Positions 980-24,433 of a DNA stretch of 64,000 nt are shown here, in pieces. The stretch is from Candidatus Giovannonibacteria bacterium RIFCSPHIGHO2_01_FULL_45_24 (GTDB lineage: Bacteria > Patescibacteriota > Minisyncoccia > UBA11713 > 2-01-FULL-45-33), in NCBI GenBank assembly GCA_001778495.1, contig MFHE01000014.1, forward strand, positions 8,409 to 72,408, written 5' to 3'. A model generated the notes under the pieces. It saw only the letters and a program-made list of their open reading frames with translations, did no database searches and had not been told where the DNA came from. Each line of letters begins with the position of its first letter. Positions within the stretch are counted from its first letter, which is position 1. A program made the position numbers and the translations under genes.

Positions 980-3070
<2,091 letters not shown>

Positions 3071-3075
3071 AAAAA

Positions 3076-3462
3076 TTATTTAAGCGAGTTTTTTAAATCA
3101 AGAAGGAATTTATTTGCGAATTCTACGGTTTCTTTGGAGATTTTGTCCGTTTGCTCTTCGCGTATTTTTCTAAGCAAAAATTCCCACATTTTTGTAAAAA
3201 CTTGTTTATCTTTTTCATCAGGAATTAACTCAAGTATTCTTTCCGAATAACCAATTACCGGCTCCAGCCACGATGCTACCGCATATTTATTGTGCCGCCA
3301 CTTTTCTTGTTTTTCCGCCAATTTGCTGCCATGCTCAGCAATAGCTTTTTTTTCTTCATCACTCAACCAAACATCAGGATACTCTCCATAATCATTGAGC
3401 AAGCTATCTATTGTTTTCTTGGCTTCTTCTTTCGGATCCAACCGTTCTTTGCCTCTTTCCAT
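3076..3462 (-). CDS. Hypothetical 128-aa K/E-rich protein inserted between rpsG and fusA
   Basis: ORF-track ORF. Its stop is 6 nt before the fusA start. It is visibly more AT-rich than its neighbours. No family recognised. Confidence 0.55.
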
Positions 3463-3478
3463 AAAATTTTCAAATTTA

Positions 3479-3670
3479 CCCCCACACCAACTTATGTTTC
3501 TAAAGATGCGCGCATTCTCAATCTAAGCTGCGCAAAAGCACTCGACCTTAACTTCAAATTTGATTTTCTTTTGCGCGCATCTTTCTCGGCTTTGTATGCC
3601 TTATAGTAGATAAGCTCAAATGGCGCTCGCAATTTTGTAGAAAATGATTTTTTCTCATTTGGTGTGGGGG
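3479..3670 (-). repeat. ~190-nt intergenic element closed by a 12-bp inverted repeat, with nested and alternative internal stems
   Basis: Outer inverted repeat: CCCCCACACCAA (3479-3490) / TTGGTGTGGGGG (3659-3670). Inner 12-bp stem: AAAGATGCGCGC (3502-3513) / GCGCGCATCTTT (3573-3584). Competing 9-bp stem: GCGCAAAAG (3530-3538) / CTTTTGCGC (3568-3576). Confidence 0.7.
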
Positions 3671-3671
3671 C

Positions 3672-4163
3672 TTACCAAGCAAAATGCGCGAAGGCGCGGT
3701 TGGCTTCGGCCATGCGATGGGTATCCAGTTTTTTCTTGATGGCGGCGCCTTCGTTTTTCGCGGCCAAAAGAACCTCTTCGGCCAGTTTTTTAGCCATCGG
3801 CTTGCCTTTTTTGGCGCGAGAGGCGCCGATAATCCATCTCGCCGCCAAAGAAAACCCCCTCTCCGCAGAAACCTCTCTCGGTACCTGGTACGTCGCCCCG
3901 CCGATTCTTCTGGGGCGGATTTCCACGAGCGGCGTCACGTTTTTCAGCGCTTCTTCCAAAACCGCCACGGGGGTTTCCGTTTTTTTTCCTGCCTTGTCGG
4001 CAGACAGGGCTTTCTTTATTTCTTCAAAAACGCCCTCCATAACTTTCTGCGCGGTTGTCTTTTTGCCGGAAAGCATCAAATAGTTGGTGAGTTTCGCCAC
4101 CAGCCGGGAGCTGTAAATCGGATCCGGCCTCAATTCTCTTTTTTCTTTTTTCTTTCTACGCAT
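3672..4163 (-). CDS. rpsG: 30S ribosomal protein S7
   Basis: 163 aa. Reads PDPIYSSRLVAKLTNYLMLSGKKTTAQKV and ends ANRAFAHFAW, both typical of S7. It follows rpsL. Confidence 0.96.
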   Translation of the reverse strand: MRRKKKEKRELRPDPIYSSRLVAKLTNYLMLSGKKTTAQKVMEGVFEEIKKALSADKAGKKTETPVAVLEEALKNVTPLVEIRPRRIGGATYQVPREVSAERGFSLAARWIIGASRAKKGKPMAKKLAEEVLLAAKNEGAAIKKKLDTHRMAEANRAFAHFAW

Positions 4164-4166
4164 GTT

Positions 4167-4194
4167 TGAAAATTGTAAATTGAAAATTGTAAAT
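4167..4194. repeat. Exact 14-nt tandem duplication (TGAAAATTGTAAAT x2) in the rpsL-rpsG spacer
   Basis: Read directly: 4167-4180 is identical to 4181-4194. Confidence 0.9.
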
Positions 4195-4607
4195 TAAGCC
4201 TTGGGGCGCTTTGTTCCGTATTTTGACCTTTGCTGTTTCCTACCCTCAACGCCGGCTGTGTCCAAAACCCCGCGGACAATGTGGTATTGAACGCCCGGAA
4301 GGTCCTTAACGCGCCCGCCCCGTATCATTACGACCGAGTGCTCCTGCAGGGCATGCTTCTCGCCGGGAATGTATGCTGTGACTTCCATTCCATTGGTGAG
4401 GCGCACTCTCGCAACTTTTCGCAAAGCCGAGTTCGGCTTTTTAGGCGTCATAGTTTTCACCGCCAAGCAAACCCCTCTTTTGAAAGGCGACGGGTAAAAA
4501 CGCGGCCGATTTTGGAGCACGTTAAAAGACTTGGCCAAAGCCACAGACTTCGCTTTATACTCCATCTTCTTTCTGCCCTTTTTAACCAATTGATTTATAG
4601 TAGGCAT
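4194..4607 (-). CDS. rpsL: 30S ribosomal protein S12
   Basis: The ORF-track ORF 4194..4628 contains [14 protein letters not shown] at its 8th codon, the canonical S12 N-terminus, so I place the start at 4607. Confidence 0.95.
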
Positions 4608-4635
4608 ATTTGTATCGCAGTTTATCACACTTCAA

Positions 4636-22777: not shown

Positions 22778-24433
22778 ATGCCCAAAGATGACACCATTTC
22801 CGAGCTCCGAAAAAAAGAAGAGGAAGATTTGGCGCGGATTTTGGCGCAAAAACACGGACTTACTTATCTTGACCTCTCGCGCATCACAATTGATTTGGAT
22901 TCGCTCAAGATAATTCCTGAAGAGACCGCGCGGGCGAATTCCATGGCCGCGATACAAAGCGTCGGGAAAAAACTGCAGGTTGCACTGACGAACCCGGAGC
23001 GGCCGGCGGTTAAAGAAGTTTTGGAAAATCTTAAAGCGAAAAAATACGAACCGCAGCTTTTTCTAGTTTCCCCCTCCGGCCTGGAAAAAGCTTTGTCCAA
23101 ATACAAAGAGATTCCGCGTTTTGAGGAAATCAAAGCCGGGATTATAGACGTCTCCTCCGACAAGCTTGCGGCTTTCGCCGAAGCCGCCGGGTCTTTTGAA
23201 AAATTCAAAGAGGCCGTCTCTGCCATGGCGCGCGAAAAAGAAGCGAAAAAGGCCTCCGACGCGCTTGAGCTGATTCTGGCGGGAGCGCTGGGAGTTGAAG
23301 CGTCGGACGTGCATATGGAACCGTCGGAGCAAAGCGCCAAAATAAGATTGCGGACGGACGGGGTTTTGCAGGACGCAGCCGAGATACCGCTCCCGCTTTT
23401 TCTGCTGCTGCTCTCCCGGATAAAACTTATATCGGAGCTCAAGCTCAATATCCACGACAAGCCGCAGGACGGCAGGTTCACCATAAAAACCCAAAAAGAA
23501 GACATAGAAGTCAGAACCTCCGTGCTGCCGGGCCCTTACGGAGAATCCGTAGTCATGCGGCTTCTCCTGCCCAAAACCATTTCCATAACTTTTGATGGAC
23601 TCGGCATGCAGCCGCCGGTTTATAAAATGATGAAGGAGGAGCTTGTCCGCCCCAACGGAATGATTCTTACGACCGGCCCCACCGGCTCCGGCAAAACCAC
23701 GACTCTTTACTCTTTTTTAAAAACCATCGCTTCGCCGGAAGTAAAAGTGATAACGATAGAAGACCCGATTGAATACCATCTGCCTAACATCACCCAGACG
23801 CAAGTAGAGCCGCCCAAAGGATACGACTTCGGCAACGGCCTCCGCTCAATTTTGCGGCAGGACCCGGACATCATACTGGTCGGGGAAATCCGTGACCTGG
23901 AAACCGCGGAAATCGCCATGCACGCGGCGCTCACGGGGCATCTGGTTTTCTCCACCCTCCATACTAACGACGCCGCCGGGACAATCCCCCGGCTTATAGA
24001 TTTGGGGGTTAAAACGAACATAATCTCGCCGGCGCTGAATTTGGTCATAGCCCAGCGCCTCGTGAGAATATTATGCAAAGAATGCAAAGCGCGGGTTTCT
24101 CCGTCGGGCAAGGAAAAAAAGGCGATTTCAAAAACCATCTCCGAGCTCCCGCCGGCTTACAAGCGCGAAGTGCCGGCGAATTTCAAAATATGGAAAGCCA
24201 CCGGCTGCGCGGCCTGCAACGGCACCGGGTTCAGGGGAAGAATCGGCATCTTTGAAGCATTTCTTATTGATAACGAAATGGAACGGCTGATAATCAAAAA
24301 CCCGCCGAAGGCGGACATTGAAGAAGCGGCGAAAAAACAAGGCATGGCGACAATGTATCAAGACGGCGCGCTGAAAGTTCTGGACGGGATTACGTCCTTT
24401 GAAGAATTAAACAGGGTTGTTTCTGAAGAGTAG
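22778..24433 (+). CDS. pilB: GspE/PilB-family secretion or type IV pilus assembly ATPase
   Basis: 551 aa. Walker A GPTGSGKTTT, Walker B ILVGEIRD, His box TGHLVFSTLHTND, and tetracysteine CKEC...CAAC. Confidence 0.92.
   Translation: MPKDDTISELRKKEEEDLARILAQKHGLTYLDLSRITIDLDSLKIIPEETARANSMAAIQSVGKKLQVALTNPERPAVKEVLENLKAKKYEPQLFLVSPSGLEKALSKYKEIPRFEEIKAGIIDVSSDKLAAFAEAAGSFEKFKEAVSAMAREKEAKKASDALELILAGALGVEASDVHMEPSEQSAKIRLRTDGVLQDAAEIPLPLFLLLLSRIKLISELKLNIHDKPQDGRFTIKTQKEDIEVRTSVLPGPYGESVVMRLLLPKTISITFDGLGMQPPVYKMMKEELVRPNGMILTTGPTGSGKTTTLYSFLKTIASPEVKVITIEDPIEYHLPNITQTQVEPPKGYDFGNGLRSILRQDPDIILVGEIRDLETAEIAMHAALTGHLVFSTLHTNDAAGTIPRLIDLGVKTNIISPALNLVIAQRLVRILCKECKARVSPSGKEKKAISKTISELPPAYKREVPANFKIWKATGCAACNGTGFRGRIGIFEAFLIDNEMERLIIKNPPKADIEEAAKKQGMATMYQDGALKVLDGITSFEELNRVVSEE

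Follow-up and report, generated by a model that had tools for sequence, protein, structure and literature searches.

The str operon of Candidatus Giovannonibacteria bacterium RIFCSPHIGHO2_01_FULL_45_24 (contig MFHE01000014.1) was analyzed within a stretch of 64 kb of contiguous DNA, which is referred to here as the window. All genes of the operon are encoded on the minus strand, in the order rpsL (4194-4628), rpsG, a 209-nt spacer, an open reading frame (ORF) of 128 aa (ORF128), and fusA (Table 1). The spacer contains a 192-nt element bounded by inverted repeats, which is very probably the defunct copy of a small mobile cassette that is widespread in bacteria of the candidate phyla radiation (CPR)/Patescibacteria. 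Intact copies of this cassette carry a gene for a GIY-YIG nuclease between their repeats.

An insertion between rpsG and ORF128

The element is an insertion relative to related genomes. In four relatives (L100, L101, L112, and L113), the rpsG stop codon and the ORF128 homologue are separated by 11 to 26 nt. The empty site of L113 is TGGTAATTTGAAAATTTT, read in context as TGGTAATTTGAAAATTTTATGGAGG, while the order in the window is TGG-TAAG-(192 nt)-TAAA-TTTGAAAATTTTATGG. The two flanking tetranucleotides are putative copies of a target-site duplication. Inspection of the flanks for such a duplication, as suggested by a first-pass annotation of this DNA, gave a match at three of four positions. 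The window flanks are one substitution away from a perfect duplication, and the stop codon of rpsG is preserved. In L032 and L234, which contain intact cassettes, the flanks are perfect (TAAA/TAAA).

The first-pass annotation had described the AT-rich segment between rpsG and fusA as a single foreign insert of 600 bp, with the ORF as a part of it. The base composition was borne out, with a G+C content of 41% in the element and 37% in ORF128 compared to 51 to 52% in rpsG and fusA. However, only about 197 nt (3475-3671) are inserted in comparison to close relatives, and ORF128 is older than the insertion, conserved, and under purifying selection in the operon of this lineage. Likewise, comparison of rpsG-fusA synteny gave a mixed answer, as the ORF is common to relatives and the spacer is absent from them. 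Since an identical 215-nt spacer was found on 10 contigs with different sample/assembly accessions, the spacer is not an assembly artifact.

The perfect 12-bp outer inverted repeat is present as annotated, and its arms are separated by 168 nt. The inner stem is also present and perfect, but it is 13 bp rather than 12 bp long, and the competing 9-bp stem overlaps the inner arm by 5 nt instead of 4 nt. In intact relatives, the outer repeat extends inward over the start codon (CCAACTTATG/CATAAGTTGG) and reaches 18 to 19 bp; relative to these repeats, the window copy has lost a CTT on the left side. A search for further copies of the terminal 12-mer, also proposed at first pass, yielded three occurrences in the window (0.18 expected), a number reached by none of 100 shuffled sequences. 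These occurrences include a solo right arm upstream of a gene encoding a PilB/GspE-like ATPase. No left partner was found within 750 nt of this arm, and it is probably a relic of another element. The sequence downstream of the solo arm (TAAAATTGAAGA) is similar to the flank near ORF128.

Between the arms of the element, the minus-strand frame translates as KKSFSTKLRAPFELIYYKAYKAEKDARKRKSNLKLRSSAFAQLRLRMRASLET, followed by a stop codon. Comparison of this 53-aa translation with 5.8 billion proteins returned three matches of 84 to 89 aa that belong to PF01541 (E = 2e-13 to 4e-10). Identity to these proteins was 69 to 74% and extended over the C-terminal half only (best match, P0005, with E = 2e-13 and 74% identity). 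The intact proteins carry PF01541 alone, with no second domain. Another Giovannonibacteria genome (L032) encodes an intact 85-aa gene in an element that has the same ends and is 83% identical at the DNA level over 183 aligned columns, and the intact copy of L234 contains 20 identical nt adjoining the deletion junction of the window copy. These similarities show that the window element is homologous to intact cassettes. Its ORF measures 167 nt compared to 258 nt in L032; the net deletion of about 91 nt took out approximately codons 2 to 32 with the GIY and YIG motifs and caused a frameshift. The segment is a pseudogene remnant of a GIY-YIG nuclease gene and, because both catalytic signature motifs were lost with these 91 nt, the element encodes nothing yet retains both arms.

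The proposal of an insertion resembling a miniature inverted-repeat transposable element (MITE) was essentially right. Terminal inverted repeats bound the element, its site is empty in relatives, the 4-bp duplication on its flanks is nearly perfect, and no functional gene is left between the arms. No further copy of the 192-nt derivative was detected in the window, and all 10 carrier contigs represent the same rpsG-ORF128 locus; neither the rest of the genome nor public collections were covered by this search. As the deletion derivative was seen at one locus only, it appears not to have been amplified.

ORF128 is a genuine gene of a narrow lineage and is independent of the insertion. Its product matches a hypothetical protein encoded in a Candidatus Giovannonibacteria metagenome-assembled genome (MAG; locus tag A2661_01955) with 100% identity, and the gene is located between rpsG and fusA in every relative in which both sides are visible. 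Homologues with 48 to 56% identity occur between rpsG and fusA (or the position of fusA) in L001, L100, L101, and L112. The ratio of nonsynonymous to synonymous substitution rates (dN/dS) is approximately 0.2 where synonymous sites are unsaturated (0.119/0.601), and the G+C content is low in all members of the family (35 to 38%). The absence of a recognized family, noted at first pass, was borne out for Pfam and NCBIfam. A profile search of 1.84 billion representatives recovered nine clusters only, and a PDB fold search with the AF2 model (five helices; pLDDT, 74.5) gave no match better than E = 0.25. Translation may start at a TTG codon at approximately 3441-3439 (…TTG GAT CCG AAA GAA GAA GCC) rather than at the ATG at 3462; the relatives L101 and L113 start at the homologous TTGGATCC, with GGAGG ahead of it.

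Table 1. Coordinates of the element, its parts, and neighboring features in the window
Feature	Position	Strand	Basis
Inverted-repeat-bounded element, 192 nt; non-autonomous, internally deleted copy of a GIY-YIG cassette	3479..3670	-	Empty sites and match to the intact L032 element
Left terminal inverted repeat CCCCCACACCAA (5' arm on the minus strand)	3659..3670	-	Perfect 12-bp inverted repeat
Right terminal inverted repeat TTGGTGTGGGGG	3479..3490	-	Perfect 12-bp partner of the left arm
GIY-YIG nuclease pseudogene; original ATG at 3658-3656, C-terminal half readable at 3495-3653	3492..3658	-	Match to PF01541 proteins
Inner palindrome, 13 bp (3502-3514/3572-3584), and overlapping 9-bp pair (3530-3538/3568-3576)	3502..3584	-	Former coding sequence
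Left flanking tetranucleotide TAAG, putative target-site duplication copy; TAA is the rpsG stop codon	3671..3674	-	L113 empty site; 4-bp repeats of the family
Right flanking tetranucleotide TAAA, putative target-site duplication copy, 3/4 match to left	3475..3478	-	L113 empty site; 4-bp repeats of the family
Solo right arm TTGGTGTGGGGG, followed by TAAA	22754..22765	+	12 nt upstream of the ATG of the PilB/GspE-like ATPase gene (22778-24433)
ORF128, lineage-restricted protein gene of the str operon, outside the mobile element	3076..3462	-	Homologues in relatives; dN/dS ~0.2
rpsG (ribosomal protein S7), upstream neighbor	3672..4163	-	PF00177, E = 6e-54
fusA (EF-G), downstream neighbor	980..3070	-	EF-G domain set, E <= 1e-60

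Association of repeat and nuclease gene across the family

A family scan with a protein-alignment query, using one genome per GTDB species, identified 290 relatives, and the best 80 loci were read. Exact inverted repeats, with a minimum length of 10 bp and reaching 22 bp, bracketed the ORF at 59 of these 80 loci, compared to 5 of 441 shifted controls, with only a few nucleotides between the repeats and the start or stop codon. The outer core CCCC(N)CAC ... GTG(N)GGGG (core CCCCCACAC) was conserved across loci. Intact homologues at the unrelated loci L005, L013, L019, L032, L234, and L235 have arms of the form (A/T)CCCCCACAC(CAA/TTAA)... and ...GTGTGGGGG(T/A), and the left arm of the window element also flanks intact GIY-YIG genes in L005, L013, L032, L234, L235, and many of the loci L020 to L099. 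The inner positions of the repeat vary by locus yet remain complementary (565 of 864 cells; permuted mean, 294; maximum, 347). This inner part often takes in the ATG, and the variable part often reaches the stop region. Repeat class also tracks protein clade, with identities of 0.61 to 0.74 within a class and 0.535 between classes. Overall, these data show that repeat and gene are associated across the family, which comprises 1,240 protein clusters at E <= 1e-10.

Additional repeats were observed within the genes themselves. In L033 (approximately 1376-1500) and L091, an ORF-less unit of about 110 nt (ACCCGCCCACCAAT...ATTGGTGGGTGA) is located within the GIY-YIG ORF just past codon 4, nested in the outer repeat of that gene. 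Class C genes (L086, L087, L088, and L099) contain a conserved internal palindrome of 12 to 15 bp (GGAAACGCTTCAAA) at ORF nucleotides ~71 and ~231, which corresponds to the RKRFK codons and the C-terminal LKRFL codons.

Short units without an ORF were identified in metagenomes with the pattern CCCCCACACCAA-N(0-30)-TTGGTGTGGGGG. Such hairpin units were present on at least 120 contigs, mostly with centers of 2 to 5 nt and whole-unit lengths of 26 to 29 bp. Among the 120 distinct units listed, 52 are flanked by perfect 4-nt direct repeats (permuted mean, 10; maximum, 19), and the 4-nt flanks of a further 24 differ at one position. No comparable signal was detected in these units for flanking repeats of 3 or 5 bases. 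The duplications follow the patterns TNNA or CNNG (TAAA, TTTA, TATA, TTGA, CTTG, CACG, and others). Perfect 4-bp direct repeats were also found at 10 of the 59 ORF-bearing units (1.3 expected), which shows that they flank units both with and without an ORF. The two kinds of unit stand side by side in L149, L171, and L228. In 729 kb of hairpin-bearing contigs, there are six GIY-YIG homologues, of which those of L149 and L228 are enclosed by the same arms and that of L171 is located between two hairpin units.

The position behind rpsG recurs in other CPR lineages, where 7 of the 80 loci lie in the rpsG-fusA interval. The repeat unit begins 0 to 1 nt past the rpsG stop codon in the five loci read for this distance (L039, L043, L044, L045, and L046), and it is located near rpsG in L050 and L051 as well. 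At four such loci (L043, L044, L046, and L050; e.g., L044 1765-1903), arms beginning with ACCCGCACACTTA directly past the stop codon enclose ~140 nt of noncoding cargo. This cargo is conserved between different genomes (…CTTGCCATTATTCTGCTTTTTCAATATAAAAAA…GGCAGAAYAAAAAAGCTATGGCAA…) and might represent either a structured RNA or a non-autonomous element that has been amplified. The rpsG-fusA interval of L044, from another CPR lineage, also holds an unrelated 103-aa ORF (1070-1381, minus strand) beside an antisense GIY-YIG gene, and the spacer seems to be generally permissive in CPR. In the Giovannonibacteria relative L001, a pair of genes encoding a 69-aa protein and a 91-aa YafQ-like toxin is located between rpsG and the ORF128 homologue (3511-3995). 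As this toxin-antitoxin-like pair occupies the same place as the window element, insertions have landed repeatedly in the spacer behind rpsG. A HicA/UPF0150 pair lies directly past fusA in the same genome (6885-7309); judging from these two pairs, small selfish modules accumulate at the borders of the str operon.

Cassettes of the family are also found in genes for structured RNAs. L062 (1350-1990) and L052 (1398-2050) contain full-length bacterial RNase P RNA genes (RF00010; 308 and 251 bits, respectively) with an insertion of ~270 to 290 nt, composed of a GIY-YIG ORF and its inverted repeat, in a peripheral hairpin loop. The right arm lies directly against the P4 sequence GAGGAAAGUCC in L055, L071, L077, L080, and L095. 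A second repeat class (GCCCCTCACC...) is located at the 5' end of tRNA-Ala and tRNA-Val genes in L053, L054, L057, L060, L061, L064, L066 (right arm ends at ~1770), and L065, the last of which contains two cassettes in tandem. The terminal GGGGC of the second-class arm doubles as tRNA nucleotides 1 to 5, and the units are flanked by 5-nt direct repeats (CAGTA, CCTTA, GCTTA, and others). The segment 308-620 of L234 contains a second GIY-YIG gene of another subfamily (79 aa) and, immediately behind it, what looks like the 3' two-thirds of a tRNA (…GTAGAGCGGTCGCC…GTTCGATCC…GCGCACCA), which suggests that this ORF was inserted within a tRNA gene.

Origin of the element and alternative explanations

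An intact cassette consists of one gene for a single-domain GIY-YIG nuclease of ~85 residues within terminal inverted repeats of 12 to 22 bp. Such a cassette probably landed right behind the stop codon of rpsG, with duplication of a 4-bp target (TAAA, now TAAG/TAAA), and the later loss of ~91 nt with both signature motifs left the two arms in place. A described precedent is SsnA of Neisseria meningitidis, a 94-aa single-domain GIY-YIG protein (CDD cd10448, GIY-YIG_unchar_3). The hairpin repeat bound by SsnA (NTS/SRM) is present in hundreds of copies, also on the flanks of the gene for SsnA itself, and the enzyme cuts single-stranded DNA alongside this repeat (Chenal et al. 2025, PMC11893778). 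By analogy with SsnA acting on a hairpin in single-stranded DNA, the GIY-YIG protein of the cassette may recognize the paired arms, cut beside them, and drive the spread of the unit. The window copy could then be mobile only with nuclease supplied in trans, and what remains in the operon would be a structured spacer, probably neutral, with read-through into ORF128 and fusA.

On a broader scale, the CCCC(N)CAC...GTG(N)GGGG units could constitute an unrecognized class of prokaryotic transposable elements with an ~85-aa GIY-YIG (Ssn-like) nuclease as their sole protein. Elements of this class would generate 4-bp TNNA/CNNG duplications, give rise to ORF-less derivatives down to 26 to 29 bp, and survive in essential loci (behind the rpsG stop codon, at tRNA 5' ends, and in loops of RNase P RNA) since their arms close into a stem. 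We put this generalization forward tentatively, as a possibility somewhat short of a probable one. If true, it would answer the question, raised in the Ssn paper, of whether repeat-ssn-repeat units are mobile.

Several observations weigh against a mobile cassette spread by its own nuclease. The window contains only three arms and no intact nuclease gene, no protein of its MAG was among the 120 best relatives of the intact gene, and the duplication around the window element is imperfect (3/4 positions). The GIY-YIG domain is not known to have strand-transfer activity, which leaves the source of the 4-bp duplication unexplained. The published SRM motif, HGTCWYN(0-2)YYVSBRHN(0-5)WNVSBRGN(0-2)RNCYNB, does not occur in the 64-kb window and was found within 150 nt of the gene at only 1 of the 80 loci. 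The nearest solved structures to the intact protein are the UPF0213 proteins 1ZG2 (E = 2.3e-6) and 1YWL, so placement in the Ssn family is tentative; a plasmid search with a family protein recovered YazA-like genes only, with Bacillus subtilis YazA as the best match. Finally, perfect 4-bp duplications flank 17% of the ORF-bearing units compared to 43% of the ORF-less units, and because of this difference the ORF could be a later arrival in preexisting hairpin elements.

Such a late arrival is the basis of the strongest alternative, which we nevertheless consider unlikely. Short hairpin units (12-bp arms, a center of 2 to 30 nt, and a 4-bp duplication) would be the true elements, moved by another enzyme, or else would be host hairpins. 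The GIY-YIG gene would be a selfish endonuclease gene copied into hairpin loops by cleavage and repair, leaving in the window a hairpin with a wrecked gene. Besides the unequal duplication frequencies, the constant position of the ORF at the repeat center agrees with this explanation, as do the layout of L171, which is hairpin-gene-hairpin and not gene-in-hairpin, and the cassettes in hairpin loops of RNase P RNA, where a stem is required anyway. However, repeat class covaries with GIY-YIG clade, and long locus-specific inner repeats that reach the start and stop codons of the ORF are easier to understand if repeat and gene travel together. In addition, classical GIY-YIG homing enzymes have DNA-binding domains, which are missing from the single-domain protein of 85 aa. 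No other transposase was noticed with the units, though no systematic search was made.

Far less probable is that the element has been exapted as a cis-acting RNA, a successor to the rod-like RNA, attenuator, or cis-regulator proposed at first pass. In this case, an outer stem and two mutually exclusive inner stems would fold in the str-operon transcript and be kept as an attenuator, an RNase processing site, or a stabilizer that uncouples rpsG from ORF128 and fusA. The predicted fold of the 209-nt spacer is indeed strong (-65.9 kcal/mol) and, in the comparison with shuffled sequences suggested by the first-pass annotation, far better than expected on both strands (z-scores of -5.55 and -4.50 for the minus and plus strands, respectively). 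The identical sequence on 10 contigs suggests fixation in that population. Among the four subclade members, pairing amounts to 94% in stem 1, where G-C pairs have changed to G-U, and to 78% in stem 2.

In contrast, the element is absent from the four relatives with the same rpsG-ORF-fusA layout, and the 168 nt between the outer arms do not fold significantly better than shuffles (z = -1.6), which places the folding signal in the repeats. The inner stems preexist as coding sequence in intact genes at unrelated loci. The palindromes fall on the EKDARKR, AFAQ, and RASLE codons, and intact genes (L032 and L234) already contain the 11-bp core of stem 1 (AAAGATGCGCG/CGCGCATCTTT), which also occurs in L235 with G-U pairs. 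Paired counts in the subclade were not above those of shuffles, and no compensatory double changes in the inner stems were found among its four sequences. A search of 2900-4300 against Rfam at a permissive threshold gave chance-level matches only, and a scan of the element detected neither terminator-like nor promoter-like sites. Neither the conservation at the orthologous position nor the covariation characteristic of an attenuator, leader, or processing element was observed. With inner stems derived from coding sequence, no covariation, a weak interior fold, and no associated signals, nothing besides the repeats themselves speaks for the attenuator or rod-RNA reading. Thus, there is no evidence for a new regulatory RNA of the str operon, and a false lead has been removed.

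Other structural and functional candidates were also rejected. The inner stems are not a conserved feature of the family, as their positions pair at a random level in its wider membership (3.8/11 and 3.4/8). The cassette as a whole does not form an extended single-stranded rod, since ORF interiors (mean z = -0.34) did not differ from flanking controls (-0.52; p = 0.36). The arm CCCCCACACCA is not a tRNA 3' end, as the order of the arms is the reverse of that in a tRNA. The right arm is unfit in its spacing as a Shine-Dalgarno sequence or promoter of ORF128, and the scan for such signals was empty. Chance palindromes or an assembly artifact in an AT-rich spacer can practically be dismissed, as only the small size of the repeats speaks for them, and the recurrence of the 12-mer in the window, the identical copies under different sample/assembly accessions, and the presence of the same arms around homologous genes in dozens of genomes all speak against them.

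Comparison with known systems

A dead mobile cassette remains the favored reading of the element, and it shares features with several known types of genetic element. Free-standing GIY-YIG homing endonuclease genes (I-TevI and Seg) have the same catalytic domain, spread selfishly, and are located beside highly conserved genes. Unlike these, the present units have no DNA-binding domain and no intron, and they possess terminal inverted repeats and a target duplication. Their proteins of 84 to 89 aa have no second domain and, rather than a single site as for a classical homing gene, many sites with variable 4-nt flanks are occupied, though the rpsG stop codon, tRNA genes, and RNase P RNA genes recur among them.

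Similarity to bacterial MITEs, such as Correia elements, is found in the terminal inverted repeats, the short target duplication, the empty sites, the lack of a working gene, and the internal deletion. In contrast to MITEs, the presumed parent here encodes a GIY-YIG nuclease and not a DDE transposase, and the most common ORF-less units are just 26 to 29 bp long. REP/RAYT (REPIN) and IS200/IS605 elements likewise consist of a small nuclease gene between palindromic repeats that also spread as short ORF-less units, with recognition of a DNA hairpin as the likely basis. However, they use an HUH Y1 transposase with a covalent intermediate and produce no target duplication, whereas a GIY-YIG protein and a 4-bp duplication are found here.

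GIY-YIG ORFs have been described in non-intron insertions at stem-loops of CPR rRNA genes (PMC11270868). These insertions fit with the RNase P RNA cases reported here. With them, and with the intervening sequences that RNase III excises from rRNA, the present cassettes share the combination of a GIY-YIG ORF, an insertion of neither the group I nor the group II intron type, and a location at the tops or bases of stem-loops in structured RNA genes of CPR. The published insertions are described for rRNA genes only, whereas the present units occupy an mRNA spacer, RNase P RNA genes, and the 5' ends of tRNA genes. The terms "inverted repeat" and "hairpin" were absent from it in a term search; target duplications were not searched for. 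Searches of open-access papers and preprints led to the Ssn paper and this CPR rRNA-insertion paper only, and no earlier account of these repeat units, of the duplications, or of insertion sites in RNase P RNA genes, at tRNA genes, or behind rpsG was found. The element family with its 4-bp duplications and its insertions in RNase P RNA and at tRNA genes appears to be undescribed.

The relic behind rpsG points to a large CPR family of inverted-repeat-bounded GIY-YIG cassettes with miniature ORF-less derivatives. If the nuclease drives their spread, this would be a new mode of action for a GIY-YIG enzyme, namely as a mobility protein, and the proposed mobility of Ssn-type units would become directly testable. 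The family would also provide many new pairs of nuclease and recognition sequence, of the kind proposed as tools for single-stranded DNA.

The closest resemblance is to the Ssn/NTS-SRM system, as far as it is covered by the passages of the Ssn paper used here, whose authors point to an architecture like that of insertion sequences and to an analogy with REP/RAYT (PMC11893778). Both systems have a single-domain GIY-YIG protein of about 85 to 95 aa, an inverted-repeat motif on both flanks of the gene and in many free copies, and covariation of repeat type with protein, and L171 has the same hairpin-gene-hairpin layout. They differ in that the arms here, in the window and at most loci with L171 as an exception, pair across the ORF instead of forming local hairpins of 20 to 50 nt, and in their hosts, most of which here belong to CPR and not to Pseudomonadati. 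The 4-bp flanking repeats found here are not mentioned in those passages, though no search for such a statement was made. Overall, the window locus is ordinary molecular debris, and the family it exposes is, as judged from sequence comparison, a variant of the Ssn-type pairing of repeat and nuclease that shows direct sequence evidence of mobility.

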